A stretch of 64,000 nt of DNA, taken from assembly GCA_035534235.1 (NCBI GenBank), contig DATLSH010000079.1, positions 2,640-66,639 of the forward strand. The letters run 5' to 3'. The position numbers were made by a program, and so were the translations under genes. How positions within the stretch are numbered: position 1 is the first letter of the stretch; the number at the start of each line of letters is the position of its first letter. Under the pieces are notes generated by a model, which did not search any database, was not told where the DNA came from, and saw only the letters and a list, made by a program, of their open reading frames with translations. This document shows positions 4,818 to 64,000 of this stretch, piece by piece. The DNA comes from Acidimicrobiales bacterium. Lineage in GTDB: Bacteria > Actinomycetota > Acidimicrobiia > Acidimicrobiales > RAAP-2.

Positions 4818-4858
4818 CCGCTTTCCGGGCCCCGGACTGCAGGGGGCGGGGCGAAACC

Positions 4859-6581: not shown

Positions 6582-6597
6582 ACCAACTCACTCGCCG

Positions 6598-8163: not shown

Positions 8164-8166
8164 GGG

Positions 8167-9318: not shown

Positions 9319-9322
9319 GGAA

Positions 9323-16654: not shown

Positions 16655-17059
16655 TTCGACACCCCCAACACAGCCCGGTTCAAATGCACCGCGGGGTCAG
16701 GGCGGGAGGAAACATTTTCCGCAAGACCAATTTACCCGGTAGCGGGTGGAAAGAGAAGGGGACATCTGCGATCCTGGCGAGGGGGCCGGCTGGGCTTGGA
16801 CGGGAGGGAATGGGGGCGGGGTGGCCCCGTGACTTCCTGATGGATACCCCGGCCCCGATGAAAAGGGGTCCCATCGGAGGGTGGCGCTGCGGGGGTGATT
16901 GCGGCGCTGTACCGTGATGGTGGGTTCCACCAACTGGACCCGGATGAGCGTTGGCCCGGTCCCCTCCGGCGCACTTCCTTCGTGGATGGGAGAGTGTCCG
17001 TGCACCATCGGGTCCGAAGCGAAGGCGCTGCCCGCTCGACGAGTGCACCCCGAGCCTGA

Positions 17060-17755
17060 ATGTCAGCGGACCGTCTCAATCGCATCACTGCACGACTGGA
17101 GTCGGAGGGCGGTGAGGTGGGGAAACCCGCCCGCCTATGCCGGGTGGCCAAGGAGATCATCCGTGTTGACGGCGCAGGGGTCATGCTCATGTCCGGCGCT
17201 GTGCCCCAGGGTTCGCTGTGCTCCTCGAACAACGTCAGCAACCTGCTGGAGGAACTGCAGTACACCCTCGGCGAGGGCCCTTGTGTCGATGCTTACCAAC
17301 AGGATCGAGTCGTTCTTGAGCCGGATCTGGCCAATCCGGTCACGCCCCGATGGTTTGCCTTCACCCCGCGTGCGCTCGAAGCGGGCGTGGGTTCGGTGTT
17401 CGGATTCCCGTTGCGGTCCGGCACAGCCCGGTTGGGTGCCTTGAACCTCTACATGGATCGACCGGGCTCCCTCAGCGACGACCAGCATGCTGACGCCACT
17501 TTGATGGCTGATGTCATCACAGATCAGGTGCTCAATGGGCAGGCCGATGCCGTACAAGGAATGGCGGCCGGGGATCTCGAACTCAGTTCCAACTTCCAAT
17601 TCGTCGTGCACAATGCGGCGGGCATGGTGTCCGTGCAACTGGGAGTCAGCGTCACGGACGCGCTCATCCGCCTCCGTGCCCGTGCCTTCAGTGACAACCG
17701 GCTGGTCAGAGAGGTCGCCGAGGACGTTGTGGCACGAAGATTAAGCTTCTTGTGA
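17060..17755 (+). CDS. GAF-ANTAR RNA-binding antiterminator-type regulator
   Basis: The GAF domain contains LQYTLGEGPCVDAY...GALNLY. The C-terminal ANTAR domain reads VVHNAAGMVSVQLGVSVTDALIRLRARAFSDNRLVREVAEDVV. Confidence 0.85.
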   Translation: MSADRLNRITARLESEGGEVGKPARLCRVAKEIIRVDGAGVMLMSGAVPQGSLCSSNNVSNLLEELQYTLGEGPCVDAYQQDRVVLEPDLANPVTPRWFAFTPRALEAGVGSVFGFPLRSGTARLGALNLYMDRPGSLSDDQHADATLMADVITDQVLNGQADAVQGMAAGDLELSSNFQFVVHNAAGMVSVQLGVSVTDALIRLRARAFSDNRLVREVAEDVVARRLSFL

Positions 17756-18540
17756 GTCCCGGTCACGGGAAGCACCGGGGCTCACCGGGAGGCACGGTGG
17801 AGAAATCCCGAGATCACGCAATCGTTCGGTCTCTGGTCGAAATGGCCGACAACCTGGTGGACAATTTCGATGTGGTCGATCTCCTGACCGGATTGACTGA
17901 CCGTTGCGTGCGGGTGCTCGGGGTGTCCGCCGCCGGCGTCATGCTGGCCCAGGAATCCGCTGAGCTGCGGCTGGTGGCGTCCTCCAGCGAAACGATGCAG
18001 GTGGTGGAGCTCTTCGAGCTGCAGGCGGATGAGGGGCCCTGCCTCGAAGCCTTCCGTACCGGGGAGCGCGTCAGTCACGAGAACCTCCGCTCCGGTTCGG
18101 GTCGCTGGCCACGCTTCTCCGTCATTGCGCTCGAGGCCGGGTTCAAGTCGGTCTTCGCCCTTCCTCTACGACTACGTGAGAGGACGATCGGCGCGCTGAA
18201 CCTCTTCAGCATTGAGGAGGACCCCATGGACGAGCGTGATGTGATGGTGGCTCGTGGCTTTGCTGATCTGGCCACCATCAGTGTGCTCCAGCATGGTGCC
18301 GCCGCCGAGGCACAGCGGGTAAGCGAACAACTGACCCACGCCTTGACGAGCCGCATCGTGATCGAACAGGCCAAGGGGGTGGTCTCCGAACGCGCCAGGA
18401 TTGACATGACCCAAGCCTTCGATCGACTGCGTAGTTTCGCCCGCAGCCACCATCTGCGGCTGACCGATGTCGCCCAGAGCGCGATCGACGGGACCCTTGA
18501 TCCGAGCGTCTGGGTGCCGACGTCACCAGCCCCCGATTGA
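17752..18540 (+). CDS. GAF-ANTAR RNA-binding antiterminator-type regulator (second copy)
   Basis: The GAF domain contains ELQADEGPCLEAF...GALNLF. The ANTAR domain reads LTSRIVIEQAKGVVSERARIDMTQAFDRLRSFARSHHLRLTDVAQ. The start overlaps the upstream stop (GTGA). Confidence 0.85.
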   Translation: MSPGHGKHRGSPGGTVEKSRDHAIVRSLVEMADNLVDNFDVVDLLTGLTDRCVRVLGVSAAGVMLAQESAELRLVASSSETMQVVELFELQADEGPCLEAFRTGERVSHENLRSGSGRWPRFSVIALEAGFKSVFALPLRLRERTIGALNLFSIEEDPMDERDVMVARGFADLATISVLQHGAAAEAQRVSEQLTHALTSRIVIEQAKGVVSERARIDMTQAFDRLRSFARSHHLRLTDVAQSAIDGTLDPSVWVPTSPAPD

Positions 18541-18672
18541 CCCGCGACAGCATCGATACCTGAGGAGTTCGATGGACCGGACGCCGGTCAGTGGGGTAAG
18601 TTCCGGTGGCACCAATTGATCACCCCGGCGCGGTTCGGGGCGAGGCACCATGTGGCAGGGCGGGGAGGTCTG

Positions 18673-18819
18673 GTGACGGAAGAGCCGGCAGCAGAATTTG
18701 CCACCATCCGTGGCGATTTCCGGCCGGCCGAGGACGTGGACCATGTGGCCACTTGCGGCTGGCCCTACGAGACCCCGTGCCCCCGCTGCTACCCTTCCGC
18801 TTCCGCAGCCGAGGGATAG
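18673..18819 (+). CDS. hypothetical 48-aa Cys-containing peptide upstream of the kinase gene
   Basis: GTG 18673 is preceded by GGGGAGG at 4-nt spacing. The product is MTEEPAAEFATIRGDFRPAEDVDHVATCGWPYETPCPRCYPSASAAEG. Its stop lies 4 nt before the kinase ATG. I recognise no homologue. Confidence 0.3.
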   Translation: MTEEPAAEFATIRGDFRPAEDVDHVATCGWPYETPCPRCYPSASAAEG

Positions 18820-18823
18820 GCCG

Positions 18824-19966
18824 ATGCCCGACCACGAGATTGAGGATGCCACCACGGTGCGCCGGGCACTCGATGCCGCGCTCGTCATTGTGGCCGATCT
18901 CGATCTGCCGGCATTGCTGCGTCACGTCGTGAGTGAGGCTCGCAAACTGACGGGCGCCCGCTACGGTGCGCTGGGGGTTCTCAATGACGAAGGAACCGCT
19001 CTGGCCGAGTTCATCACCGTCGGGCTCACCGCTGACGAGGAGAAGCGGATCGGCCCTAATCCGACCGGACTGGGTGTGCTCGGCGTGGTCATTGCCAACC
19101 CGGCACCGCTCAGGTTGGCCCATCTTGACGCGCATGCTCAGAGCGTCGGCTTCCCGGTGCACCACCCCGCCATGACCTCGTTCCTCGGTGTGCCTATCCG
19201 GGTCAGGGGCACGGTATACGGCAATCTCTACCTGACCGACAAGGTGGGATCGCCTGAGTTCAGCGACGACGACGAGGCAGTCGTGGGCGCCATTGCCGTG
19301 ACGGCGGGCATCGCCATTGAGAACACCCGACTCCATGACCAGATTCAAGAAGTGGCTGCCTTCAAGGAACGAGAGGGATTCGCCAAGGAACAGCGCGACA
19401 CGGTGATGCGGCGCATCCATGAAGCCGGGATCAAGCTCGACGCCATTTCGGCCGAGATCGGCACCGGCACCCTGTCCGACCAGCTGCAGGATGTGATCTT
19501 CGAGATCGACGGCGCCATCCGTCAACTTCGTTCCACCAACCTCGACGTGGGGCTGATCAGGTTGAAGCGGCGGGTACGCGAGCGCCTTCTCTCTCTCCTG
19601 GTCGATCTCCGGATGGTCAGAGGGTTCGACATCCACGCCACCTTCGAAGGACCGGTCGACTCCCGAATTTCCGACCAGCTCGCCGCGCAGCTCCTGGCCA
19701 TCGTCCGCGAGGCGGTCATCAATATCGGATACCACTCCCGTGCAACCGAGGCCGAGATACTGCTCACCGTGGTGGACGAACAGTGCCAGCTGCGCGTCAG
19801 CGACAACGGCCGCGACATGAGTGCAGCCCAAAGAGAGCAGGAGGGCCGCGGTCTGGACAATCTCCGCCGTCGAGCCGAGAAACTCCAGGGCGACCTCACC
19901 ATTGAGAATCCCGCGCGAGGAGGGACGGTCCTGACGTGGACGGTTCCGCTGGACTGCTTCGACTGA
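18824..19966 (+). CDS. GAF sensor histidine kinase homologue (HisKA_3/HATPase_c) lacking the H-box histidine
   Basis: ATG 18824 follows GAGGGA. The GAF domain contains GALGVLNDEG...GNLYLTDK. The DHp region EREGFAKEQRDTVMRRIHEAG aligns to the ERERIARDLHDxVIQRLF consensus with R at the His position. The ATPase region reads SDNGRDM...GRGLDNLRRRAEKLQG. Confidence 0.8.
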   Translation: MPDHEIEDATTVRRALDAALVIVADLDLPALLRHVVSEARKLTGARYGALGVLNDEGTALAEFITVGLTADEEKRIGPNPTGLGVLGVVIANPAPLRLAHLDAHAQSVGFPVHHPAMTSFLGVPIRVRGTVYGNLYLTDKVGSPEFSDDDEAVVGAIAVTAGIAIENTRLHDQIQEVAAFKEREGFAKEQRDTVMRRIHEAGIKLDAISAEIGTGTLSDQLQDVIFEIDGAIRQLRSTNLDVGLIRLKRRVRERLLSLLVDLRMVRGFDIHATFEGPVDSRISDQLAAQLLAIVREAVINIGYHSRATEAEILLTVVDEQCQLRVSDNGRDMSAAQREQEGRGLDNLRRRAEKLQGDLTIENPARGGTVLTWTVPLDCFD

Positions 19967-47069: not shown

Positions 47070-47930
47070 TCAGTCCGGGTCGCCGGCGGGCTGAGGGTGG
47101 CCTCCCGCCTCCGACACCGCATCGGAGAGGAGGGCGGTGATCCCTCCCGAGGGGCGCCCCTCCGCACCCTTGCGGGCGTGCACCAGGAACTCGATGTTGC
47201 CGGCCGGGCCGGTCAGGGGGGACATCATGGCCCCCATGATGCCGGTTCCGGCGTCCCGGAGGGCGGACGTCACACCGGCCAGCACGTCCAGCCACACCTC
47301 GGGGTCCCGCACCACGCCCCTTCCACGGGACACGACCCCCCGGCCCGCCTCGAACTGGGGCTTGACCAGGAGCACCAGGTCGGCGTCGGGGCGGCCCACC
47401 GGGCCACACAGTGTGGGCGTCACCGTGCGCAGCGAAATGAACGAAAGGTCGGCGGTCACCAGCGCGCAGGGCTCGAAGTCCGGATCGGCCTCGTGGAGGA
47501 GGGCAGGGGTCAGGAGGCGGGCGTTGACCCGCTCGAGCACGGTGACCCGGGAGTCGGCGCGCAGGCGCTGGTCCAGCTGGCCGTGTCCCACGTCGACGGA
47601 GTACACGTGGGCGGCCCCGTGTTGGAGGAGGCAGTCGGTGAAGCCCCCGGTGGACGCGCCCAGGTCGAGGGCACGCCGGCCGGAAACCGGGACGTCGAAG
47701 CGGGTCAGCGCGGCATGGAGCTTGTGGCCACCCCGGCTGGCGAACGGCGACGGTGGTCCCAGGAGCACAATGGGCTCGGCCGGGGACACCAGGCGCGCTC
47801 CCTTGGCGGCCGTCGATCCGGCCACGACCACCGTGCCGGCGGCTATGGCCGCTTGGGCATCCTGACGAGTGGCGACGAGGCCGCGCCGTACGAGCTCGAT
47901 GTCGAGCCGACGGCGGGCCCCGGTCTTCAG
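47070..47930 (-). CDS. tlyA: TlyA family rRNA (cytidine-2'-O)-methyltransferase
   Basis: The FtsJ-like domain reads LDLGASTGGFTDCLLQHGAAHVYSVDVGHGQL. The S4-like N-terminus (K)TGARRRLDIELVRRGLVATRQDAQAAIAAG is encoded upstream of the track start (47831). It has only a CTG (47930..47928) available as initiator. Confidence 0.75.
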   Translation of the reverse strand: MKTGARRRLDIELVRRGLVATRQDAQAAIAAGTVVVAGSTAAKGARLVSPAEPIVLLGPPSPFASRGGHKLHAALTRFDVPVSGRRALDLGASTGGFTDCLLQHGAAHVYSVDVGHGQLDQRLRADSRVTVLERVNARLLTPALLHEADPDFEPCALVTADLSFISLRTVTPTLCGPVGRPDADLVLLVKPQFEAGRGVVSRGRGVVRDPEVWLDVLAGVTSALRDAGTGIMGAMMSPLTGPAGNIEFLVHARKGAEGRPSGGITALLSDAVSEAGGHPQPAGDPD

Positions 47931-48415
47931 CTGCCGGCCTTCTTGGCGGCGGTGGCCTTCTTGGCGGCGGTGGCCTTCTTGGCCGCCGGCTTCTTGGCGG
48001 CGGTGGCCTTCTTGGCCGCCGGCTTCTTCCGGCCCACCGGCGCCACCCTCTGAGCCGCGCTGCGGGCCGCCTGGGCCGTCTTGGTCGCCTGCTTGGACAC
48101 ATCGGATGTGGCGGAACGACCGACTTCGGCCGAGCGCTTAAGGATGTCGGCCACCTGGTGGGCGATCGCCTCCAGGGAGGGCGCGTCAATCCTGTTCAGT
48201 TGCGACGACACCTCGCGGCGCACCAGCTCGAGCAGGTGCTCGCTCGACTTGCGGCTCTGCTCGACCAGATTGTCGACCCACTCCCTGGCCTGGCCCCGCT
48301 GGATATCTCCGGCGCCCGCCAGTTCCCGCACGATCTCCTCGGCCCGGGCTCTGGTGACCTTGTTGAACACGTTCCCTGCATCTAGGTACTTCTTGATTCG
48401 TTCATTGCTTGCCAT
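47927..48415 (-). CDS. conserved protein with Lys/Ala-rich (AKKA-repeat) histone-H1-like tail
   Basis: A helical N-domain (phasin-like by eye) is followed by KKPAAKKATAAKKPAAKKATAAKKATAAKKAGS. Confidence 0.6.
   Translation of the reverse strand: MASNERIKKYLDAGNVFNKVTRARAEEIVRELAGAGDIQRGQAREWVDNLVEQSRKSSEHLLELVRREVSSQLNRIDAPSLEAIAHQVADILKRSAEVGRSATSDVSKQATKTAQAARSAAQRVAPVGRKKPAAKKATAAKKPAAKKATAAKKATAAKKAGS
47936..48030. repeat. imperfect tandem DNA repeat (GGCCTTCTTGGCGGCGGT-type units) encoding the AKKA tail
   Basis: ggccttcttggcggcggt appears twice, followed by ggccttcttggccgccggcttcttggcggcggt and ggccttcttggccgccggcttcttcc. Confidence 0.7.
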
Positions 48416-54482: not shown

Positions 54483-54529
54483 CTCAATGCCCGGGCGCCG
54501 CGCCCGGTACCCGATTCGACCCATTTCGC

Positions 54530-55204
54530 TTACGGCAAGATCTCTTGGATTATGACCCGTCCGGTTATCTCATCCGGGTGGATGGCAATAATGGCGTGAC
54601 GGTCACCGCCGGCCCAGGGCTCGAGGTCGAGTGAGGCCAGTCGGAGCAATTCGTCGGGATCGTCAATGCGTCGGACCCGGCCGGTGACGAGCACACTCCA
54701 GCCCTCACTCATGGCATCGTCCACCTGATCGATCTCGAATCCGACCACGGGTTGGGCCTCAAGCTCCGCGGCGCCGATCACGGTGGTGCTGACGATGACG
54801 TCGCTCCCGGTGAATCTGAAGTTGACCGGATGTGCCTCCGGGCCTCTTTTCGACATGAAGGCAAGCCGGCCCACTCCCCCGGCACTCAAATGCGCCTCGC
54901 ATTGCGCGGGGGTGAGAGCTTCGAGCTGGGGGTGGCGCCCGGCCCTCCCCCGTCCAGGAGGCCGGTCCACACGCCCACCTTCCAAGGCATTGGGAGTCGT
55001 CTGCAGGGCCAGGGCCAGCAGGAACATCGTCCCGGCGCTCAGCCGGACCCCCGAACTCTGCTCGAAATAACCTAGGTACCCCGGGTCGATCCCGGCTCCG
55101 TGCGCGACCTCTTCAATGCTCAGGCCCAGCTCCATGCGGCGATGGGCGACTCTGCGGGACAAGTCGCCTTGGTGGGGAAGGTGGGGGTCTGCGGCTTGGG
55201 TCAT
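54530..55204 (-). CDS. XRE-type HTH fused to pyridoxamine 5'-phosphate oxidase-like (FMN/F420 split-barrel) domain
   Basis: RRMELGLSIEEVAHGAGIDPGYLGYFE is the HTH. GVGRLAFMSKRGPEAHPVNFRF...GWSVLVTGRV is the PPOX-like barrel. Confidence 0.7.
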   Translation of the reverse strand: MTQAADPHLPHQGDLSRRVAHRRMELGLSIEEVAHGAGIDPGYLGYFEQSSGVRLSAGTMFLLALALQTTPNALEGGRVDRPPGRGRAGRHPQLEALTPAQCEAHLSAGGVGRLAFMSKRGPEAHPVNFRFTGSDVIVSTTVIGAAELEAQPVVGFEIDQVDDAMSEGWSVLVTGRVRRIDDPDELLRLASLDLEPWAGGDRHAIIAIHPDEITGRVIIQEILP

Positions 55205-55269
55205 TGAGCCATTCTGATACTCCTATGGACTTGAATCCACACGGGACGCGGGAGCACCCGGCGGTCCTA

Positions 55270-55989
55270 TCAGATTGAGAACGACGTGTCCGGGTTGATC
55301 CACGGTCGACGGTCCACCGCGGCTCCGTCGTCTTGAAAGTAGTCCCAGTCAAGTTGCGGCGTTCGCCAGTCTCCATACATGCACTCAAGTTCTCGTTCGT
55401 GGTCGGCGTGCCGGAGCCAGGTCCGGCCGAGGAATTCGAAGGGCACGAGCTCTTGGTCAGGCAGTTGCGCTTCAATTTCGACGAGGTGATCCGGTGGCCA
55501 GCCGTACGCGTAATACCGCAGCATGCCGTCCACGGGCTCCATGACGAAGAAGTCGAAATTCGTGTTGTGCCGGCGGAAGGTCATCTCGGTCACTTGACCC
55601 TTGTTGTTCCGGAACTGCTGGTGTATCTGAAAACCCACTCGCCGCAGTTCGGGTGCTGCACGCAGGAGTCGCGGGAGGTCTTCTGCGAGCAGAGCGAAGT
55701 CGGCATCACGATCGTGGGCAAGCAACTTCCCCTCACGGGCCCAACCAAGCAGCATGCCCGACCAGACCCAGTACCGCCCGGCAAGCTCGGTATCGGCAAG
55801 CAGGTCGTGGAGTTCCAGAAGATCGCGCACGAGGTGGCCGACGAACAGCCGATTGCTCACGCGTTGAAGTGCTCGACCCAGCACCGGAAGCTCCAACAGG
55901 TGCCTGGCTCCCACCTTCCTTAGCCACTTCATCGGCCGTCGAAGAGAGAACACGAACGGCTTCCTCGCGTGGGTCCCTGCTACCGACAT
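55270..55989 (-). CDS. LicD family (phospho-headgroup) transferase
   Basis: YWVWSGMLLGWAREGKLLAHDRDADFAL resembles the LicD/fukutin G-x-LLG-x-R...D-x-D core. Confidence 0.65.
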   Translation of the reverse strand: MSVAGTHARKPFVFSLRRPMKWLRKVGARHLLELPVLGRALQRVSNRLFVGHLVRDLLELHDLLADTELAGRYWVWSGMLLGWAREGKLLAHDRDADFALLAEDLPRLLRAAPELRRVGFQIHQQFRNNKGQVTEMTFRRHNTNFDFFVMEPVDGMLRYYAYGWPPDHLVEIEAQLPDQELVPFEFLGRTWLRHADHERELECMYGDWRTPQLDWDYFQDDGAAVDRRPWINPDTSFSI

Positions 55990-56232
55990 GCTCCAGTTTC
56001 CCCCTGGGCCGGCCGACGATTGTCGCAGTAGCTATGCACAGCCACCCTTTGAGCTAGCTGTCGAATGTCGGACAAGTGTGGGTATTGCCGCGCGTCGCGC
56101 GTCGCAAGGAACACCGCTGCAGCCTACCCTCATGATTCAGGCCCGAGTGATGGCTCACTACCGATCCTTCCGAGAGTGTCGTGCACACAAGTCAACCGAC
56201 TGTTGCGAACCGAGCCGGCGTATGATCCTTGC

Positions 56233-56931
56233 ATGCCGAGTGCAGACCCAGAAGACTTCAGCGCGGTACCACGAAGTCACGCGTGGCATGAGGTGTGGGA
56301 CCGGCGCGATCCCGAGAAGCTCAAGTACGACGGCTACGAGACCGGATTGAACAGCGACGAGGATCTGGTGCGGTTGCGGACCGCCCAGGTGGCATTCATT
56401 TCCTCCACGCTCAACCTCGGCTCGGCTGATCATCTGCTAGATCTCGGCTGTGGGACCGGGGTGCTCACCCGACAGTTGGCACCTCTTGTGCGAAGGGTCA
56501 CGGCGGTCGATTACTCGCTTGACGCCGTCGCATTGGCGCGCGACACAATGAAATCATGCAGCACGGTCGAGCTGCACTGCTCAGACCTGGTGACGTTTGA
56601 CTTGGGCTCTGTACCGGTTACCAAGGCGGTTGCCGTTGGCTCCATGCATTACCTGGACAGTTACGCCGTGCTGCACACTCTCCTCACTAGCTTCACCCGC
56701 CGGGGGGTGCCCGTCCTTGTGATGGACCTGCCAGACCAAGCGTACGCGAGCGGGGCGAGGCGCGAGTACGACCAGTCGCGCTGGTCCCACCTGGCGGTTG
56801 ACACCGAGCGGATACGAGCCGACTTCCCGAGCAGCAGGGTGCACCGGGGGATGTTCCCTTGGTATGCCAACGACGCGATGCGCTTCTCCATCTTGATCTC
56901 GCCGAGCCCCAGCTTGACGACCAACTCTTGA
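56233..56931 (+). CDS. class I SAM-dependent methyltransferase
   Basis: LLDLGCGTGVLTRQLAPLVRRVTAVDYSLDAV (motif I plus acidic loop). The track ORF begins at 56065. ATG 56233 is chosen as the more compact start. Confidence 0.7.
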   Translation: MPSADPEDFSAVPRSHAWHEVWDRRDPEKLKYDGYETGLNSDEDLVRLRTAQVAFISSTLNLGSADHLLDLGCGTGVLTRQLAPLVRRVTAVDYSLDAVALARDTMKSCSTVELHCSDLVTFDLGSVPVTKAVAVGSMHYLDSYAVLHTLLTSFTRRGVPVLVMDLPDQAYASGARREYDQSRWSHLAVDTERIRADFPSSRVHRGMFPWYANDAMRFSILISPSPSLTTNS

Positions 56932-56974
56932 ACGCCTGATCCCACAGTGCCAGTGCACTCCGGAGCCCTCGGCC

Positions 56975-57403
56975 TCAGGAACTCGCGGCCTCCTCTTCGA
57001 TCCGCTGGCGTAGCCTGACCAGCAGCTCCGTAGTGGACACGCCAGGGGTATAAGGGACCGTCCGGTAGATCCCCATCTCCATTGCGACGGCGTAGTATTT
57101 CGCCGCCGTGTGGTCATCAAAATCGTCTCCGTGTACGACGAGGTCAATTCGGTGGGTCTTCAACCAGTCCTGATTGACCGCAAGGGGGGCATTGGCCACC
57201 ACTTCGTCGACATAGCGGCACCCGGCCACAACTGCCATCCGTTCCGTCATGGTCATGAGAGGTCGTCTCTTGTAGGACTCGACGGCATCATCGGTGTGGA
57301 TCCCAACCACCAGCGCGTCCCCGAGGGACTTCGCCTTGCGCAGAAACTCCACATGGCCAGGGTGGAAGAGATCCGCCACCATGTCAACATACACACGGGT
57401 CAT
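56975..57403 (-). CDS. HxGH cytidylyltransferase, CCT/ECT-like (predicted CTP:aminoethylphosphonate cytidylyltransferase)
   Basis: VYVDMVADLFHPGHVEFLRKAK...VVGIHTDD...CRYVDEVV...RTVPYTPGVSTTELL closely follows the phosphocholine/phosphoethanolamine cytidylyltransferase pattern. Confidence 0.8.
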   Translation of the reverse strand: MTRVYVDMVADLFHPGHVEFLRKAKSLGDALVVGIHTDDAVESYKRRPLMTMTERMAVVAGCRYVDEVVANAPLAVNQDWLKTHRIDLVVHGDDFDDHTAAKYYAVAMEMGIYRTVPYTPGVSTTELLVRLRQRIEEEAASS

Positions 57404-58428
57404 GATGCGAGAACGTGGAAGAGGTTTTCAATCACTTCTTCGTCCATGGCCGCTCCCATGTTCGCCACACGAAAGATCTCGGTGCGCAACTCGTTCTGAC
57501 CATGATAGATGACGTATCCGTACTTGAGAGCCTGGGCAAACAGTGTGTCGGGGTCACGTCCCTCAAGCCTGAACGACGTCAAGACCCATGAGCGGAGTGA
57601 TTCCTCAAGCAGTGGCTCGAAGTGACGGGATCCGGCGGTCCACACGGCACGGACCAACCTGTGATAGCGGGCCGGTCGGTCCTCCGACTCAAGGATGTCG
57701 AGGGCGACATCGAGGCCGATCATGGCCTGGATGTTTGGAGTGCTCGGGATCCCATCGGCATACGCGGGCACATTGAGCACCGGCACGGTGGGATACGAGC
57801 GCAGTTCGCGCTTCCAAAGCACTCCAGCGATTCCCGGCAGCGACTCCAGGCACTTATTGCTGTTGAAGCAGACCACATCGACACTCCGGTCGACCTCGTG
57901 CACGCCGAGCGAACTGACGGCATCGACAAAGAGTCGTACACCATGTCGCCGGCAGAGTTGCGCCACAGCCGCGAGCGGATTCAAAATACCGGTTGTCGTC
58001 TCGTGGTGGACCATCGCTACCCAGTCGGGCTCACGGGCCTCCATGTCCTCTTCCAAGGCCTTGAGGTCCAAGGGTGCCCCGACAGGAACAGAGGACGCCC
58101 AAGCCTCGGCACCTTCGAGCGTGGAAAGGGTCCGTACCATTCGTTGGCAATAGAGGCCGTTGTCCGCCACCAACACCCTGCCCCGGACGAAGGACGCAAG
58201 ACCCGCATCAACGGCGAGGCTGCCCGACCCATGCAGCAGACTGAGTGCAACTTGCCCTGAGTCGAGACCCAGATGAGACAGGATCCTCGCACGCACCCGA
58301 TCCTGGAGCTCCTCGAATTCTGGTTGGCGATGGCAAAGCTCTACATTGAACAGGTTCTCTTTGATACGAGGATCGAGATTGACCGGACCCGGATTAAAGA
58401 GGATCTGCTGGCGAGACGTCAGCGGCAT
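57400..58428 (-). CDS. phnW: class V aminotransferase, 2-aminoethylphosphonate:pyruvate transaminase-like
   Basis: ILFNPGPVNLDPRIK...HHETTTGILNP...VDAVSSLG...FNSNKCLESLPG, with the PLP Lys in the NK context. Confidence 0.75.
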   Translation of the reverse strand: MPLTSRQQILFNPGPVNLDPRIKENLFNVELCHRQPEFEELQDRVRARILSHLGLDSGQVALSLLHGSGSLAVDAGLASFVRGRVLVADNGLYCQRMVRTLSTLEGAEAWASSVPVGAPLDLKALEEDMEAREPDWVAMVHHETTTGILNPLAAVAQLCRRHGVRLFVDAVSSLGVHEVDRSVDVVCFNSNKCLESLPGIAGVLWKRELRSYPTVPVLNVPAYADGIPSTPNIQAMIGLDVALDILESEDRPARYHRLVRAVWTAGSRHFEPLLEESLRSWVLTSFRLEGRDPDTLFAQALKYGYVIYHGQNELRTEIFRVANMGAAMDEEVIENLFHVLAS

Positions 58429-58443
58429 TTCGTTCTCAGCGTT

Positions 58444-58929
58444 CTACCGCGTAGAGCGATCGTGGGTGTCGCCCAATGCGTCCCTGATGCGGTCACTGTT
58501 TGCCTCGACTGTCAAGCTCACCCGGGGCGGTCTTCCGTCCCGGGTGATCTTCACCACTTCCGTCACGCCGGGATAGGACTCCTCCAGCACGGCGCACGGT
58601 TGGCCACCCACCGACTCATGACACCCGTTGTCGAGAACGTAGTGAAAGAGGTTGGTGAGTGCGCTCTCTCGCACGGTATGCGTAGTGCCCAGACTCATCA
58701 GCAAGGACGCATCGCCATTGATTACCACGACGTCACACGAAGCATTGAGCGCCATTCCTAAACCGATAGCAGGAGCCAGGCCCATGCTGCCTTGCATGTA
58801 GAACACATTGTAACCACCGCCGGCTTCAGCGAACACCGCTCGACTGATGTATCCGGTGGACGCGACGTAGACGGCGTCATGCCCGTGCCGACCCAGGATC
58901 TCTCGAATCGCCTGGTCCCTGCCCTTCAT
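58444..58929 (-). CDS. phosphonopyruvate/sulfopyruvate decarboxylase, beta (TPP-binding) subunit
   Basis: GSMGLAPAIGLGMAL...VVVINGDASLLMSLGT...VLDNGCHES is the TPP GDG-x-N motif region. Confidence 0.8.
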   Translation of the reverse strand: MKGRDQAIREILGRHGHDAVYVASTGYISRAVFAEAGGGYNVFYMQGSMGLAPAIGLGMALNASCDVVVINGDASLLMSLGTTHTVRESALTNLFHYVLDNGCHESVGGQPCAVLEESYPGVTEVVKITRDGRPPRVSLTVEANSDRIRDALGDTHDRSTR

Positions 58930-58959
58930 GGGCGACCTGGCGAGAGAGCGCGTCTTGGT

Positions 58960-59373
58960 TCACCCCTCATTGTTCTCCCCGGCAACCAGAATGTAGTTGT
59001 GCCAACCCAACAACTCGAGCAATGAGCGGTCGATCTCACCCATGACTCGGTGCTGAGGGAGGGTGTGACGGTGCCCCACCACCATGAGCAAGTCAATTCC
59101 GTACGGGATACACAGGGTGGCCAATGGGTTGACGGTATGTCCCAATCCCGCGTTCTGAAGGTACACACACGGTCTTGCCCCGGCTAACGAAGCTCCGGCA
59201 GCGATGCCCATCGCTTCCGCCTCCCACGTCGCCGTGATATGTCGGTCTGCCGGCAGCCCGGCCAAATCAGAAATGAACTCTTTCAGACCGCTGTCGGGCA
59301 CGCCCGTGAAGAAGTCATACCCGTCGGCCAAGAGGCTGTCCAGCAGCCCCTTATCGGACGTAACGATCCTCAT
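58960..59373 (-). CDS. phosphonopyruvate/sulfopyruvate decarboxylase, alpha subunit
   Basis: DFFTGVPDSGLKEF...EAEAMGIAAGASLAGARPCVYLQNAGLG is the TPP_enzyme_N-type pyrimidine-binding region. It overlaps the pepM-like stop by 23 nt. Confidence 0.8.
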   Translation of the reverse strand: MRIVTSDKGLLDSLLADGYDFFTGVPDSGLKEFISDLAGLPADRHITATWEAEAMGIAAGASLAGARPCVYLQNAGLGHTVNPLATLCIPYGIDLLMVVGHRHTLPQHRVMGEIDRSLLELLGWHNYILVAGENNEG

Positions 59374-60235
59374 TCGCCTTCAATTCGTCCACGTAAATGA
59401 TTCGGAAGATCTCATCCATACTGACAACATTGCTGTTCCCATCGGCCAGCCGCTTCTTTTCCATCAGCATGCCAAACGTGTCTTGAAGGGCCTTGGCGAT
59501 AGCTCGGATCCCGTAATTCGCGAAAATGATAAGTTTGAATCCGGCGCCGTCCAGGGCCTCGTAACTGACGGTGTTGTACGTCGTCGGAACGCACACCAAC
59601 GGTGCCGTCTCGCTCCGGTACCATTTCTCAGCAAACTCCAGAACGGGTCCGGGATCCCCTTCCTTGTGATGAATCAGGATCCCTTCTGCTCCTTCGGCTG
59701 CATACTCCCGAGCCCGGTCGAGTGCAACCTTTAGGCCTAAGCCCTTGATAAGCGCCTCGGTACGAGCAATAACCGCGAACTGAGTATCTGTCCTCTGCTC
59801 CAATGCTGCTCGTAGCTTGCCGCAGAACGTGCTCGAGTTCTCAATCTCCTCTTGCATGCCGGCATAGAAGGAACATCTTTTCGGGAAGACGTTGTCTTCA
59901 ATGCACATCCCACTCCCACCCGCCTTCTCAAATTCCCTGACGAGCCGGATCGTGTTGATTGCGTTACCTCCGCCGGCGTTACCGTCAACAAGAACCGGGA
60001 TCTTTACCCGGTCGACGATTTTGGAGACGACGTCTACGTAGTCCTGAGTGCCCAGGATGTCGGCGTCCGGAAGCCGTGCGGCCGCATGGACCTCGAAGCT
60101 GGAAACCCAGAGCCCATCTGCTCCGGCCTCCTCCGCAATTTTGGCTCCCATCGCGTTGTGAACGCCCATCAGAACAGCGGCATGATCTCCATGGAGAAGT
60201 TGAAGAACTGTCTTGTCAGGGAAGATCATTTCCAC
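59351..60235 (-). CDS. ICL/PEP-mutase superfamily enzyme, probable divergent phosphoenolpyruvate mutase
   Basis: GVHNAMGAKIAEEAGADGLWVSS...LPDADIL...PVLVDGNAGGGNAIN...GMCIEDNVFPKRCSF. It is the first gene of the operon with decarboxylase and aminotransferase. The canonical EDKxxxxxNS signature is not conserved. Confidence 0.65.
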   Translation of the reverse strand: MEMIFPDKTVLQLLHGDHAAVLMGVHNAMGAKIAEEAGADGLWVSSFEVHAAARLPDADILGTQDYVDVVSKIVDRVKIPVLVDGNAGGGNAINTIRLVREFEKAGGSGMCIEDNVFPKRCSFYAGMQEEIENSSTFCGKLRAALEQRTDTQFAVIARTEALIKGLGLKVALDRAREYAAEGAEGILIHHKEGDPGPVLEFAEKWYRSETAPLVCVPTTYNTVSYEALDGAGFKLIIFANYGIRAIAKALQDTFGMLMEKKRLADGNSNVVSMDEIFRIIYVDELKANEDRYVR

Positions 60236-60510
60236 AAGCTACCAAGATCGTTGAGGGAATGTAGGAGCCGTGATTGCCTCCCTTTGCACGTGCGACACCC
60301 GTAGTGCGTCCCCGCTCACCGACAATTCGCGGCGAGAACGCCCAGAAGTTCAGGCAGGATTCGCCGGAAGCGGGCCGACTCGGTTGAGGAGATCCCGATG
60401 ATTTCGCCGTCGACACCGATCAGGTACTGGGGTACCAGAACCTACTGAGGGGTACCTCGCACACCACGCGCCGACTCTTCCAGTCTCTGAACATTGGTAA
60501 CATTCCTCGA

Positions 60511-60945
60511 ATGCCCGACCCCCCAGAAAGGCAATCGGCACAGGCTCCCGCTCAGTCCAACTCCGATATTGTCCGTGAAATCACCGGAGCTCTGGCCCGA
60601 GGCGACTTGCTGGTGGTGATGAGCAAGCTGTCAAAGGACATCCGGTGGGCCGTGAATGCAGCCGATCGCGAAAGTGCACCCTGGTTCCGGGTCTACGAGG
60701 GCCGCAAGAACTTGCCGGACTTCTTTTCCGAGCTGGCCAAAGTCGAGTTCTCGGATTTCACCCTCAAGGCAGTAGCCAGTGATGGTGATGTCGTGATCAC
60801 GTGGCTCCACGTGGCCTTCACCGGCCCATCAGGTCGCTCGGTCGACATGGAAGAGACCCAGATTTGGCGATTCGAAAATGGCAAGGTGCGTTCCGTCGAC
60901 ACGTTGCTCGACACCGCTGCCGTGGCCGCCGTATTCGGGCCGTAG
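60511..60945 (+). CDS. NTF2-like / SnoaL-like small protein
   Basis: 144 aa with an alpha+beta cone-type pattern (...ITWLHVAFTGPSGRSVDMEETQIWRFENGKVRSV...). Confidence 0.55.
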   Translation: MPDPPERQSAQAPAQSNSDIVREITGALARGDLLVVMSKLSKDIRWAVNAADRESAPWFRVYEGRKNLPDFFSELAKVEFSDFTLKAVASDGDVVITWLHVAFTGPSGRSVDMEETQIWRFENGKVRSVDTLLDTAAVAAVFGP

Positions 60946-60959
60946 GCTGCCGCCGCCTC

Positions 60960-62729
60960 TCAACCCTTCGGGAATGCGGCGCCGTATTCATTGAGGAGAT
61001 GCTCGGTGAGCAGCTCGGACGCCAGTATGCGGCCGTGCCACTCGAACAATGAGTGTTCCAGGCCAGGGATCATGACCATCCGGAATTGCGGTTGCCGCTG
61101 CAGCCGGCGCATGGTCCGTCCTTCACCCCGTTTGAGAAGATGAGTTTCGTTCTCGCCGGCGATCACGAATATGTTGACACCGGCATCAATCACCTTGGAC
61201 AGGGTGCGCGCCGGCGGCGACTCCACGGCTATCCGGTTGATGATCCACCAGGCGGGACCGGGCAGGCCTTCGACAAAGGGGCCCAGCTTGTCGTGAGCCG
61301 GCAGTGCTCGAGCCCAGCGCTTCGTGGCCCCAGAGGCCTGCCGACGGCTATCGAGCGTTCCGCTCTGAAGCTCGGGAGGTGCCTTCGAACTCACCTCCGG
61401 TGGTTTGAACGTGAGGATCGGATTCACCACCAGCAGGCCGCGCACATGGCCGGCAATAGCTCCCTCAACAGCATGGTAGGCACCTGAGCAGAGCCCGACG
61501 AGGATGGCGTTTGACGGATCGTCGGGCGATGCGGCGTGGAGTACGTCGAGGATGTCGTCCAGCGCCTCGGGTGAATAGACAACGTGCGGGACCTGATCAA
61601 CTCGCATCGGACTGTCACCCACGCCGACCAGGTCGAAGCGGATGACACGGAAACCGGCTTCGGCCCAACGGCGAGCGAGCGTCACCCACAGGCGCGCCGG
61701 TCCGACGTGATCGATCTCTCCCGCGTTGAAGCAGAAGATCGTGGGCAATGCACCAGGGACCCCCAGCGCGTCCCGGCTCGCCTCATCGGCACTCAGAGTC
61801 ACAAGTCGTTGATCGGCGTCATGGCGGGTAGTCATGATTCCGAACAGGTTTCTACGGCCGAGCACAACCGGGCGTTCGTCTATGGACACACCGTCTGTGG
61901 TGGTGCCGACAACGGCCAGGTTTCGCCCTACGGTATCGCTTTCGATCTCCACCATTGGATCTGCAGCGGGTACAGTAGCCAGCCAATCTGCAATGGTCGC
62001 AATGGTCGCTTCGGGCATGATCGTCGCGTGAGGAAGAACATCGACAAGATCTTCCTGCCCGGCAATTGGCAAGCGCAACACATTTGGCATGTCGAGACGC
62101 TCGTTCATGCGCCGGTCGCCCTTGCGACTGGACCGCATGAGCAAAAGGACTCTGTCGGCGAGTGGTCCCTCCTGGTTGGCGATTGCCACGGCTGACAGGT
62201 CCGCCACCGTCTCCTTGTCGTAGACGAGCCCGGGTGTCTCAATTGCGCCATCGTCATGGGACTTGGTACCCAGAGCTACTGACCACAGCGCGCTCTGCCC
62301 CCGGAGGAACGCCCGCCCGGAAGCACAGGGGTCCCACAAGACAAGGTCGTCAATGACGGCGGGCCCTGATCCGAACGTCTCGGCACTGAGGGTTGCACCG
62401 ACACGCATGCCGACCACACCCAGTCGCCCGAGCCCCAGCCCCCGCATGAACTGCACCGCATGGCGAATGCTCGCCATCCACGCAGCGGTTCGCTCGGGAT
62501 CCTCGTGTCGGCCGGCCGAGTCGCCGGTTCCGTCGTAATCAAATCGCAAGGCCACAAGACCTGACTCGGCCAGTCGATCTGCCAAGAGCCTGAAGGCGAG
62601 ATGTGCACTCACCGCCTCAATACCCATAGTCGGGCAGAGCACCACGCCTCCACGGGCACTCCCGTCTTCCGGAACGTGCAGCCAACCGAACAGCGGGCGA
62701 TCCTCGGGGCCGAACCACAGCGACTTCAC
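60960..62729 (-). CDS. tandem alpha/beta-hydrolase-fold protein
   Basis: Domain 1 reads LFGWLHVPEDGSARGGVVLCPT...LRFDYDGTGDSAG with elbow GMRVG (no Ser). Domain 2 reads RFDLVGVGDSP...VGLCSGA (Cys at the nucleophile position). Confidence 0.7.
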   Translation of the reverse strand: MKSLWFGPEDRPLFGWLHVPEDGSARGGVVLCPTMGIEAVSAHLAFRLLADRLAESGLVALRFDYDGTGDSAGRHEDPERTAAWMASIRHAVQFMRGLGLGRLGVVGMRVGATLSAETFGSGPAVIDDLVLWDPCASGRAFLRGQSALWSVALGTKSHDDGAIETPGLVYDKETVADLSAVAIANQEGPLADRVLLLMRSSRKGDRRMNERLDMPNVLRLPIAGQEDLVDVLPHATIMPEATIATIADWLATVPAADPMVEIESDTVGRNLAVVGTTTDGVSIDERPVVLGRRNLFGIMTTRHDADQRLVTLSADEASRDALGVPGALPTIFCFNAGEIDHVGPARLWVTLARRWAEAGFRVIRFDLVGVGDSPMRVDQVPHVVYSPEALDDILDVLHAASPDDPSNAILVGLCSGAYHAVEGAIAGHVRGLLVVNPILTFKPPEVSSKAPPELQSGTLDSRRQASGATKRWARALPAHDKLGPFVEGLPGPAWWIINRIAVESPPARTLSKVIDAGVNIFVIAGENETHLLKRGEGRTMRRLQRQPQFRMVMIPGLEHSLFEWHGRILASELLTEHLLNEYGAAFPKG

Positions 62730-64000
62730 GCGGTCACCTCGGTACTTCCGGTGTTCGACGTGGCCGGTCCGGCACCTTCGGCCACGGCGATACTCACCGG
62801 ACTCTGCAAATTCAGGGCTCGGATCACCCCTATGGGCGGACGCTCATGGACATCTTCTCCGGATCGAACTCCGCCAGTCAGAGAGGCGGACCTTTCGGGA
62901 TGCAGGCGGACTACCCGGGTCCCGCCAGGTTCGAGGTGGAACCACGAATCACTGGGGCGCCAGCCCGGTGCGTCGATCGCTACCGACTGGGCGAAGCGGC
63001 GGGTCGCCACGTGGAGATCCCACGAGCCTGCCGCCGCCGGGTGCGCGTGAGCGGTGAGCCCCAAATGACCTTCTACTTGTCGACAAGGTCCACCGGGTAA
63101 CCAATGGACCTGACTGACGACTGTGGGATCGACCGCCGAGCGTTCGTCGGTTGAGGTCATATGTGCGGCACCCAACGCTAATGCTCCCTGCCCATCGGTC
63201 ATCAACGACACCGAGACGACATCGTAGGTCAAAGGCCCAAATCGATAGGCGTAACTGATGTCGCGGAAGCCATCGAATAGCGCCGTCGCTTCAATCTCGA
63301 TCCCTCCACGTGCCGGAATGACCACGATCTGCTGGCCGACTTCAGAGAGCAGCTCCCCCCGCTGATAGAGCGTCACCCGCACCGATCCGGTGAACTCCGC
63401 AGCGGTGTCGTTCAGAAGGTGGAGGCGGAGCCCATTGACTCCCTCGTCGGTCACCAGAACAGCAATCGGTGAGAAGACCCGCCTCAGTGCAAACCATGGG
63501 GCCTTGGGCCGGCCCAGCGCGTCAATGATCCCCCATCCCGGGCCGGGCATCAGGTCACGTAGGGCAATCAGCAGCCCCCCGGCACAGGGAGATCCTGGTC
63601 GGCGCCACTCGGAGAACACCCTGGCCATCACCTCGGCCACTGCGGCCCGCCCGAGATCGAGTGAACGCTCCGGGTTGAGGTGCCGCAGCATGTGCGCATC
63701 AATCCCGAACACCTGGTGCACATAGAACTCGCGTACATCTTCGAGGTCCAAAGCTCGCCCAGTGTCATGGTGCACTGATCGCTTCCACCCCGGGTCGTGC
63801 CCGGCACGGATCGCCCCACCGCATACCTCGTCCACCGTCTGTCGTTCGGGCGGTACCCCGAAGGCCAGCCCTTCGCTCATGAAACGCACGTTGGCGCGTC
63901 GGGCATCGTCAATTGGCCGAAGGAAGGTCCCGACTCCGAAGTAGTGGCTGACCCCGACATCGACGCGGAAGGGTAGGTCTCCCCCGGTGGGGCTCGACAC
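62726..64000 (-). CDS. glycoside hydrolase, GH2 (beta-mannosidase-like) C-terminal part; 5' end beyond the window
   Basis: RFMSEGLAFGVPP resembles the GH2 nucleophile block F-x-SE-x-G. Downstream beta-sandwich-like regions follow. The frame is open to base 64000, so the M in the track is an edge artefact. Confidence 0.55.
   Translation of the reverse strand: MSSPTGGDLPFRVDVGVSHYFGVGTFLRPIDDARRANVRFMSEGLAFGVPPERQTVDEVCGGAIRAGHDPGWKRSVHHDTGRALDLEDVREFYVHQVFGIDAHMLRHLNPERSLDLGRAAVAEVMARVFSEWRRPGSPCAGGLLIALRDLMPGPGWGIIDALGRPKAPWFALRRVFSPIAVLVTDEGVNGLRLHLLNDTAAEFTGSVRVTLYQRGELLSEVGQQIVVIPARGGIEIEATALFDGFRDISYAYRFGPLTYDVVSVSLMTDGQGALALGAAHMTSTDERSAVDPTVVSQVHWLPGGPCRQVEGHLGLTAHAHPAAAGSWDLHVATRRFAQSVAIDAPGWRPSDSWFHLEPGGTRVVRLHPERSASLTGGVRSGEDVHERPPIGVIRALNLQSPVSIAVAEGAGPATSNTGSTEVTA

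Follow-up and report, generated by a model that had tools for sequence, protein, structure and literature searches.

A rare methyltransferase family beside cytidylyltransferase and LicD-like genes in a predicted 2-aminoethylphosphonate gene cluster of an Acidimicrobiales bacterium

Gene content of the cluster and assignment of its products

A gene cluster with a predicted role in the synthesis and activation of 2-aminoethylphosphonate (AEP) was analyzed in a 64,000-nucleotide stretch of DNA from an Acidimicrobiales bacterium (assembly GCA_035534235.1, contig DATLSH010000079.1, positions 2,640 to 66,639; hereafter referred to as the window). Its core (window positions 55270-57403) comprises three intact genes encoding a cytidylyltransferase, an S-adenosylmethionine (SAM)-dependent methyltransferase and a LicD-like phosphotransferase, and all open reading frames (ORFs) named in a first-pass annotation of the sequence were recovered. 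These three genes directly follow four minus-strand genes located immediately 5' of the cytidylyltransferase gene, which encode a phosphoenolpyruvate (PEP) mutase-like protein (Ppm), both halves of a phosphonopyruvate decarboxylase (PpdA, PpdB) and an AEP aminotransferase (AEPT). Together, Ppm, PpdA, PpdB and AEPT (57400-60235, -) would complete an AEP pathway. The new aspect of the cluster is its methyltransferase, representing a very rare family that is locked to cytidylyltransferase and LicD-like genes in phosphonate as well as putative amino-alcohol-phosphate loci. Coordinates of the cluster and of the related loci (numbered with the prefix L) are summarized in Table 1.

Table 1. Features of the cluster in the window and gene contexts of the methyltransferase family in other loci.
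Locus	Feature or context	Position	Strand	Description
Window	Ppm, PEP mutase-like, non-canonical subfamily	59351-60235	-	PF13714; TIGR02320 below cut-off
Window	PpdA, phosphonopyruvate decarboxylase, N-terminal (alpha) half	58960-59373	-	TIGR03297, PF02776
Window	PpdB, phosphonopyruvate decarboxylase, C-terminal (beta, thiamine pyrophosphate-binding) half	58444-58929	-	TIGR03297, PF02775
Window	AEPT, AEP aminotransferase, PhnW-like	57400-58428	-	TIGR03301, PF00266
Window	Cytidylyltransferase	56975-57403	-	142 aa; stand-alone HxGH enzyme, PF01467; Fom1-CyTase/ECT/CCT branch
Window	Methyltransferase	56233-56931	+	232 aa; class I, SAM-dependent; rare NodS-like family
Window	Intergenic region between the divergent LicD-like and methyltransferase genes	55990-56232	.	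presumed shared promoter region
Window	LicD/fukutin-type phosphotransferase, divergent subfamily	55270-55989	-	239 aa; PF04991
L007	Type A	9525-12991		cytidylyltransferase, methyltransferase, PpdB, PpdA, Ppm, cytidylyltransferase, then GT2 genes
L011	Type A			AEPT, cytidylyltransferase, methyltransferase with overlapping stop/start codons; LicD-like gene nearby
L012	Type A	3470-6464		methyltransferase divergent from Ppm-PpdA-PpdB-cytidylyltransferase; LicD-like gene nearby
L013	Type A			AEPT-cytidylyltransferase-LicD convergent with methyltransferase
L178	Type A	6180-10657		LicD-like gene, then methyltransferase, divergent from Ppm-PpdA-PpdB-cytidylyltransferase
L177	Type B	8190-11274		Pseudonocardia alni GCA_040296245.1; methyltransferase start overlaps the end of an NTP_transf_3/CobD-like fusion
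L009	Type B	7584-11065		NTP_transf_3/CobD-like fusion, then methyltransferase
L179	Type B	7202-10666		NTP_transf_3/CobD-like fusion, then methyltransferase

The stop codon of AEPT overlaps the start codon of the cytidylyltransferase gene (ATGA). As described in the first-pass annotation, the methyltransferase gene is positioned between the genes for the cytidylyltransferase and the LicD-like protein; however, it lies on the opposite (+) strand, convergent with the former (43-nt gap) and divergent from the latter (243-nt gap), and is co-transcribed with neither of them. Its longest ORF spans positions 56065-56931, and the start at 56233 is favoured by the alignment of homologues and by most gene calls. 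In the divergent intergenic region, inspection of the sequence revealed a Shine-Dalgarno-like element (AGGGGGA) about 9 nt 5' of the ATG of the LicD-like gene, and a scan for the sigma-70 consensus returned no promoter match within this region. A promoter and terminator consensus scan of the cluster gave no signal, and neither did folding of the 43-nt convergent gap (z = 0.73).

The cytidylyltransferase matched PF01467 with 71.7 bits (cut-off 21) and contains the blocks VADLFHPGHVEF, GCRYVDEVVANAP and YTPGVSTTELL, which correspond to DLFHPGH, CRYVDEVV and PGVSTTELL of the first-pass annotation. Within these, HPGH at residues 13-16 represents the HxGH nucleotide-binding motif and PYTPGVSTT the C-terminal RTxGISTS-type motif. 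Furthermore, the equivalents of D82, K122 and H168 of the phosphocholine and phosphoethanolamine cytidylyltransferases (CCT and ECT) are conserved. Among single domains of PDB entries, the highest scores were obtained for the Fom1 CyTase (5X3D; 86.5 bits), rat CCT-alpha (83.8 bits) and the N-domain of ECT (81.3 bits), followed by Plasmodium CCT (72.6 bits) and TagD (52.7 bits). Human ECT was the best whole-protein match (1.8e-44), but this value adds up the scores of two domains (81.3 and 71.9 bits). Identities counted from the alignments amounted to 47% for the Fom1 CyTase and to 38% each for the N-domain of human ECT and for rat CCT. Moreover, the motifs HPGH/HxGH, SYKRxPxMT and PYTPG[IV]S[ST]T are common to Fom1 and the bacterial family of the window enzyme, whereas eukaryotic CCT and ECT carry xFKG/HKG and RT[EQ]G[IV]ST in their place. 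The protein consists of a single domain of 142 amino acids, featuring neither the tandem catalytic domains of ECT nor the membrane-binding segment of CCT, and more than 1,100 bacterial homologues of this stand-alone enzyme were retrieved at E<1e-10. At the position aligned with Trp151 of rat CCT, which is part of the choline cation-pi box (3HL4), the window enzyme and Fom1 alike possess a leucine.

Based on these results, the first-pass assignment to the HxGH cytidylyltransferases of the CCT/ECT branch is corroborated, with the glycerol-3-phosphate cytidylyltransferase TagD, at 52.7 bits only, being more distant. In contrast, the label 'eukaryote-like' does not hold, given the higher identity to the phosphonate-specific bacterial Fom1 and the large number of bacterial homologues: the enzyme is assigned by its sequence to a bacterial, phosphonate-associated branch of the CCT/ECT/Fom1 group, and a eukaryotic derivation was rejected on identity and neighbourhood data. 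It had further been stated that the enzyme is not of the LicC/PntC type. This is correct with respect to the fold, since a Pfam search yielded PF01467 and no match to PF12804, the LicC-like fold of characterized PntCs. However, PF01467 is already listed as a PntC type (Li and Horsman 2022) and is counted in the literature as a second class of phosphonate nucleotidyltransferases/PntCs, albeit one that is uncharacterized for AEP (PMC6697681; Li and Horsman 2022). Of the bacterial Ppm enzymes, 23.6% carry a fused PF01467 domain, with Fom1 and PhpF named as precedents (Rice et al. 2019, PMC6697681). Accordingly, activation by a non-LicC enzyme, which had been presented as novel, was already published. 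The gene is placed directly after AEPT and four genes from the Ppm-like gene, that is within the distance of about five genes from ppm by which PntCs are recognized.

The methyltransferase possesses motif I in the form LDLGCGTG and matched Methyltransf_25 (44.3 bits) and the NodS family PF05401 (34.6 bits, cut-off 24), while remaining far below the cut-off of the NCBIfam NodS equivalog (37 bits vs. 300). NodS, daptide N-methyltransferase and two Erm models were the four top-ranking NCBIfam entries, and NodS was also the best PDB match in a single-sequence search (1.2e-6). An AlphaFold2 model (pLDDT 82.7) displayed alternating beta and alpha elements of the Rossmann type, and its best Foldseek match was again NodS (3ofk; E 8e-11, TM 0.62-0.75). 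When the family profile was used, phosphoethanolamine N-methyltransferases (PMTs) of plants and nematodes headed the PDB matches (AtPMT2 8.6e-16, AtPMT1, HcPMT1 1.4e-10); these scores rest mainly on the SAM core (AtPMT2: 61 bits from domains of 32 and 27 bits; HcPMT1: 44 bits over residues 8-145), and the single sequence retrieved no PMT from the PDB at E<=0.01. Outside the SAM core, the residues R25, R205, R217, W18, W22, Y140, Y179, Y211, D168, D180 and N213 are invariant in the family, and the arginine, tryptophan and tyrosine residues among them would suit a ligand bearing anionic and cationic groups.

Members of this family are extremely scarce. Among 5.8 billion proteins, a single-sequence search identified nine relatives and an 18-sequence profile 41. 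A profile search against 1.84 billion representatives gave 17 clusters at E<1e-30, and significance fell off steeply beyond about 1e-19. No member was found among 185,579 species-representative genomes, which contained only generic SAM-motif matches (<=42% identity over about 80 amino acids), and 241 million metagenome records contributed one full member (L094, from the same contig as L007) and one partial member (L095). Named members originate from Pseudonocardia alni and a Pseudonocardia metagenome-assembled genome.

The LicD-like protein matched PF04991 with 25.6 bits (cut-off 22.6). Its G-x-LLG-x-R ... D-x-D-x-D motif reads GMLLGWAREGKLLAHDRDADF, in which HDRDADF represents the DxD motif. 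The alignment of its subfamily shows the pattern GxLLGxxRxG...HDxDxDF with invariant G78, L81, G82, R85, G87, D93, D95 and D97; Pfam LicD is matched by four of eight subfamily members (best 3.7e-17), and an alignment of the subfamily profile with FKRP covers the catalytic DxD region of the latter (E 1e-9). The LicD-family assignment of the first-pass annotation, here taken as membership in the LicD/fukutin superfamily, is thus supported by the DxD motif and the FKRP alignment together with the marginal Pfam match.

The Ppm-like protein matched PF13714 (147 bits) and TIGR02320 (243.1 bits, cut-off 319.55), and its best PDB matches were the PEP mutases 5UNC (223 bits) and 1M1B (181 bits), compared to <=94 bits for lyases. 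NCBI records give its relatives no more specific name than 'isocitrate lyase/PEP mutase family protein [Acidimicrobiales bacterium]'. The variant motifs EDN[VIP][FY]PKRCS and DGNAGGGN are strictly conserved in the window protein and in those encoded by L007:11584-12462, L012:4803-5714, L174:5134-6012 and L176:5204-6070. Since the deviations are strictly conserved, the scores for PEP mutases far exceed those for lyases and an irreversible phosphonopyruvate decarboxylase is always encoded next to it, the protein is taken as a genuine but non-canonical PEP mutase that is predicted to convert PEP to phosphonopyruvate. Genome surveys for phosphonate synthesis that filter on EDKxxxxxNS would discard this variant, so that phosphonate producers in Acidimicrobiales-like lineages may be under-counted. 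PpdA aligned to residues 1-122 of TIGR03297 with 100 bits, above the sulfopyruvate decarboxylase alpha model (70 bits), and PpdB to residues 172-287 with 101 bits, above the corresponding beta model (80 bits). For AEPT, the best family was TIGR03301 (187 bits, yet below the cut-off of 360.8), and PF00266 was also matched.

Neighbourhoods of the methyltransferase family and of the AEP cassette

Nine independent contexts of the methyltransferase were compared, namely the window, L007, L009, L011, L012, L013, L177, L178 and L179. Within three genes of the methyltransferase, a nucleotidyltransferase of either fold was present in all nine contexts and a LicD-like gene in eight, whereas an amine-forming pyridoxal phosphate-dependent enzyme, either AEPT or a CobD-like decarboxylase, was encoded in six. 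The contexts span Acidimicrobiales-like, Pseudonocardia and Firmicute-like backgrounds, and the gene arrangement in the window is not due to chance, as homologues recur in the same neighbourhoods. A tblastn search of the cluster proteins against 160 retrieved loci yielded no further phosphonate context.

Two types of context were distinguished. Type A contexts (window, L007, L011, L012, L013, L178) are associated with phosphonate genes. Among them, L007 encodes a pair of cytidylyltransferase paralogues, and its neighbourhood lacks a LicD-like gene. Type B contexts (L009, L177, L179) lack Ppm. Each encodes a fusion protein in which a LicC-type NTP_transf_3 domain is joined to a CobD-like threonine-phosphate decarboxylase domain (TIGR01140, 167 bits), and all three lie inside Wzy/Wzz/Bac_transf polysaccharide loci that additionally contain a LicD or LicD-like gene. 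As a candidate function, type B loci may provide a de novo pathway to a decoration with an N-methylated amino-alcohol-phosphate, possibly a choline-phosphate-like one. As both types have only a CMP-activated 2-aminoalkyl-phosph(on)ate in common, the amine would be the most economical target of the methyltransferase. Furthermore, the LicD-like subfamily accompanies the methyltransferase across both types, which suggests that it is adapted to a modified headgroup.

The cassette next to the methyltransferase also occurs elsewhere. In L174, Ppm, PpdA, PpdB, AEPT and the cytidylyltransferase are encoded in the same order, with identities of 85, 85, 80, 77 and 78% to the window proteins, respectively, and neither the methyltransferase nor a LicD gene was found within 8 kb of this cassette. 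In L176 (3219-8405), the order Ppm-PpdA-PpdB-AEPT-cytidylyltransferase directly follows genes for LPG_synthase_TM and CDP-alcohol phosphatidyltransferase, an arrangement read from the gene order as a bacterial Kennedy-like phosphonolipid layout using an HxGH cytidylyltransferase. In L175, the cytidylyltransferase gene adjoins a gene for a diacylglycerol kinase-like protein. The cassette encoding Ppm, Ppd, AEPT and cytidylyltransferase thus appears to be a common mobile unit to which the methyltransferase/LicD pair would have been added as an accessory module; because the same five genes occur at 77-85% identity without this pair, the pair is the new part. The product of the cassette would be CMP-AEP in all cases, its fate being set by the downstream modules.

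Cytidylyltransferases with and without a neighbouring methyltransferase showed no systematic difference at conserved positions. A distinct substrate pocket in those adjoining the methyltransferase was therefore rejected, and all of them probably accept plain AEP. Since the window enzyme is 78% identical to a cassette enzyme that occurs without any methyltransferase, it most likely catalyzes the conversion of CTP and AEP to CMP-AEP.

The region from 54.5 kb to the end of the window (54500-64000) shows a GC content at third codon positions of 0.64-0.78, compared to 0.84-0.89 for the adjacent housekeeping genes encoding RecN, NadK, TlyA and BCKDH, suggesting an accessory or horizontally acquired island. 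The right flank of the cluster encodes a SnoaL-like protein, a 589-amino-acid double alpha/beta-hydrolase and a GH2-like protein. Envelope-glycan genes are located about 45 kb away (6598-13195, -) and encode a class I methyltransferase, an FkbM-type methyltransferase, a GT4 glycosyltransferase and a 1290-amino-acid AftD-like GT-C arabinofuranosyltransferase (PF11847, 647 bits); these genes could supply the acceptor polymer. Moreover, a run of GAF signalling genes (15563-19966) comprises a GAF-GGDEF diguanylate cyclase (-) as well as GAF, GAF-ANTAR and GAF-histidine-kinase-like proteins (+). An Rfam scan of the 64-kb window identified a single tRNA (15340-15414, -) and no rRNA; the taxon named for close homologues of the encoded proteins is Acidimicrobiales. 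A 162-amino-acid protein (47927-48415, -) ends in a histone-like, lysine/alanine-rich tail of AAKKA/PAAKKAT repeats and gave no Pfam match.

Proposed headgroup pathway and alternative readings

Based on gene content and neighbourhood conservation, the locus is proposed, with moderate confidence, to represent a phosphonyl-tailoring system for a cell-surface glycan whose headgroup is N-methylated by the methyltransferase. In this pathway, the variant Ppm would convert PEP to phosphonopyruvate, the split Ppd would decarboxylate the latter to phosphonoacetaldehyde, and AEPT would form AEP, which the Fom1-type cytidylyltransferase would activate with CTP to CMP-AEP. The NodS-like methyltransferase would then N-methylate the aminoethyl headgroup, most likely at the level of CMP-AEP or after transfer, and the LicD/fukutin-type enzyme would move the (methylated) phosphonyl headgroup from CMP to a sugar hydroxyl of an envelope polymer. 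Precedents are available for single steps of this scheme: SAM-dependent N-methylation of AEP by DfmB/DfmC (PMC12006828), methyl transfer by CD0243 to the nitrogen of an amino headgroup that a glycan carries in phosphodiester linkage (PMC8861647), and tailoring at the CMP level by Fom3 acting on CMP-2-hydroxyethylphosphonate and in later Dfm steps (PMC12006828).

The individual parts of this proposal differ in strength. That the methyltransferase participates in the headgroup pathway, as the first-pass annotation had assumed, is very probable in view of the recurrence of its rare family beside cytidylyltransferase and LicD-like genes. N-methylation of the headgroup as its chemistry is moderately probable, since the neighbourhood pattern favours it and NodS is the nearest relative in sequence and structure. 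The number of methyl transfers is a separate matter, as neither these relatives nor the invariant residues discriminate between mono- and trimethylation. The N-methylated headgroup suggested previously is the best-supported reading, whereas its specification as 'phosphonocholine' is not, because nothing indicates three methyl transfers; trimethyl-AEP is considered an unlikely product.

Several observations weigh against the proposed N-methylation system. The methyltransferase shares only 18-19% identity with NodS at a TM of 0.6-0.75, and the Foldseek search returned about 1,500 significant class I methyltransferases, with O-, C- and N-types following closely behind NodS. The Pfam match of the LicD-like protein is marginal, and its single-sequence AlphaFold2 model was too poor to use (pLDDT 36.6). 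The Ppm-like protein scores under the TIGR02320 cut-off and is devoid of the canonical EDKxxxxxNS loop, featuring EDNVFPKRCS instead of EDKxFPKxNS and DGNAGGGN instead of DxDTGYGN. Furthermore, the opposite orientation of the methyltransferase gene makes its co-expression with the cluster less certain, and acceptor glycan genes do not adjoin the cluster. Finally, L007, L012 and L178 encode Ppm, Ppd, cytidylyltransferase and methyltransferase, and no AEPT was found in their neighbourhoods. Here, the gene for the amine-forming enzyme would have to lie elsewhere, or else the methyltransferase would act on something other than an amine.

The AEPT-free loci keep alive the alternative that the methyltransferase acts in the pathway on oxygen, that is on the phosphonate/phosphate oxygen of the installed headgroup or on a hydroxyl of the acceptor sugar. 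Three phosphonate contexts without an aminotransferase fit such an amine-independent target, and the class I fold does not separate N-, O- and C-types, O- and C-methyltransferases being among the top Foldseek and profile matches. For methylation of the headgroup oxygen, parallels are known from the methyl ester of the Campylobacter O-methyl phosphoramidate and from phosphonate O-methylation of the DhpI type. O-methylation is nevertheless judged unlikely, as the best relative in sequence and structure is an N-methyltransferase and the family is tied to genes making or activating headgroups across unrelated glycan loci rather than to particular glycosyltransferases. Moreover, its translational coupling to the cytidylyltransferase in L011 and L177 suggests a small-molecule substrate. 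A comparably low probability is attached to trimethylation followed by LicD-dependent installation of 2-(trimethylammonio)ethylphosphonate ('phosphonocholine') as a C-P mimic of phosphocholine. Phosphocholine is the group classically transferred by LicD enzymes, PMTs lead the PDB list obtained with the family profile, SAM methyltransferases of Streptomyces lavendulae produce trimethyl-AEP (PMC12006828), and the type B set of CobD-like decarboxylase, LicC-type transferase, methyltransferase and LicD resembles a de novo route to a choline-phosphate-like group. However, the PMT scores are two-domain sums on the SAM core that the single sequence does not reproduce, the cytidylyltransferase has a leucine where CCT has Trp151, and only one methyltransferase gene is present, with nothing pointing to processivity or three transfers. 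NodS itself is a mono-methyltransferase, which also counts against trimethylation.

The remaining readings are less probable. Supply of a Kennedy-type phosphonolipid pathway (CMP-AEP and diacylglycerol) instead of glycan decoration would agree with the placement of the cytidylyltransferase in the ECT/CCT branch and with the lipid-related genes next to the cassette in L176 (CDP-alcohol phosphatidyltransferase, LPG_synthase_TM) and next to the cytidylyltransferase in L175 (diacylglycerol kinase-like). For the window this is decidedly improbable, as no CDP-alcohol phosphatidyltransferase gene is located near the cluster and the transferase encoded there is LicD-like, glycans and teichoic acids being the acceptors used by this family. 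Still less credible is the absence of a C-P product, with the Ppm-like protein not being a PEP mutase and the pathway leading, for example, to a sulfonate or carboxylate analogue via a ComDE-like split decarboxylase. The unmet canonical motif (EDN..KRCS; D87N equivalent), the score below the TIGR02320 cut-off, the KRC triplet recalling the loop of isocitrate/methylisocitrate lyases and the split of the decarboxylase as in sulfopyruvate decarboxylase would fit this alternative. They are outweighed by the scores of 223 and 181 bits for PEP mutases vs. <=94 bits for lyases, the preference of both decarboxylase halves for the phosphonopyruvate model over the sulfopyruvate models, the AEP aminotransferase as best family of the transaminase, the requirement of the cytidylyltransferase for a phosph(on)ate acceptor, and the strict conservation of the variant Ppm in six loci, where it adjoins Ppd, AEPT and cytidylyltransferase genes. 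Finally, the methyltransferase might be a chance neighbour acting on an unrelated substrate, in keeping with its location on the opposite strand with intergenic regions of its own and with its absence from the closest cassette relative (L174). This explanation was rejected on neighbourhood conservation and is effectively refuted: an extremely rare family lies within three genes of a cytidylyltransferase in 9/9 and of a LicD-like gene in 8/9 contexts across Acidimicrobiales-like, Pseudonocardia and Firmicute-like backgrounds.

Provided that the methyltransferase N-methylates the headgroup, it would be the first candidate enzyme for N-methyl-AEP on bacterial glycans; in the literature searched, no described pathway for N-methyl-AEP on bacterial surface glycans was found. 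N-methyl-AEP is common in nature, and dedicated bacterial oxidases for its catabolism exist; the published sources cited in the literature consulted are invertebrates and marine phytoplankton. A more far-reaching and rather doubtful reading takes the methyltransferase/LicD pair as a portable module for de novo decoration with aminoalkyl-phosph(on)ates that are quaternary or N-methylated. Where it adjoins the AEP cassette, its product would be trimethyl-AEP on a surface glycan of Acidimicrobiales; where it adjoins CobD-like/LicC-type fusions, as in Pseudonocardia alni and others, a choline-phosphate-like group independent of imported choline would result. If this were true, these bacteria would be an unrecognized biosynthetic source of the pool of N-methyl-AEP and trimethyl-AEP consumed by PbfB/C/D and TmpA/B. 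With Pseudonocardia alni, a cultured relative carrying a member of the methyltransferase family is available, so that the idea is open to direct testing.

Comparison with known systems

Three of the systems compared involve N-methylation. DfmB and DfmC of the dehydrofosmidomycin pathway in Streptomyces lavendulae perform SAM-dependent N-methylation of AEP that is derived from Ppm, Ppd and an aminotransferase; they serve an antibiotic pathway, in which the product trimethyl-AEP feeds a 2-oxoglutarate-dependent dioxygenase (PMC12006828). Both enzymes are probably not members of the window methyltransferase family, as no Streptomyces protein is among the 41 members. NodS of Bradyrhizobium (3OFJ/3OFK) methylates a free primary amine, its substrate being a de-N-acetylated chito-oligosaccharide; unlike NodS, the window family possesses its own invariant N- and C-terminal motifs. 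In the type A flagellin glycan locus of Clostridioides difficile (CD0240-CD0244), CD0243 transfers a methyl group to the amine nitrogen of a small headgroup, which a phosphodiester links to a sugar, and AEP was seen as a variant headgroup in this glycan (PMC8861647). There, flagellin GlcNAc carries threonine phosphate as the headgroup, and methylation was proposed to take place after transfer (PMC8861647). CD0243 was not among the 41 family members found.

Regarding activation, the eukaryotic enzymes ECT (Pcyt2) and CCT (Pcyt1) belong to the same HxGH branch as the window cytidylyltransferase and differ from it in the tandem repeat and the membrane segment, respectively. The Lic pathway of Streptococcus pneumoniae (LicC, LicD1/LicD2) follows the same logic as the window system, with a CMP/CDP-activated zwitterionic headgroup and subsequent LicD-type transfer to a wall polymer. 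In contrast, the pneumococcus imports its headgroup, choline phosphate (a P-O-C ester), instead of making it de novo, and the fold of the activating enzyme is different. The CyTase domain of Fom1 from Streptomyces wedmorensis (5X3D) is, like the window enzyme, a PF01467 HxGH protein of a Ppm-linked pathway. It is fused to Ppm and cytidylylates 2-hydroxyethylphosphonate transiently during fosfomycin synthesis (PMC6697681), whereas the window enzyme is stand-alone, encoded after an AEP transaminase and paired with a LicD-like transferase.

Decoration of surfaces with AEP via CMP activation and LicD-type transfer, as well as the occurrence of PF01467 nucleotidyltransferases in phosphonate clusters, is established knowledge. 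The closest counterparts are the PntC/LicD loci of Atopobium rimae (Ari1348), Olsenella uli and Treponema denticola, in which, as in the window, Ppm-Ppd-AEPT genes are accompanied by those for a cytidylyltransferase and a LicD-like transferase (PMC6697681), nucleotidyl activation being encoded no more than five genes away from ppm (Rice et al. 2019, PMC6697681). Characterized PntCs are LicC-like PF12804 enzymes, often fused to Ppm, and the described systems contain no methyltransferase, whereas the window combines a stand-alone PF01467 enzyme with a methyltransferase.

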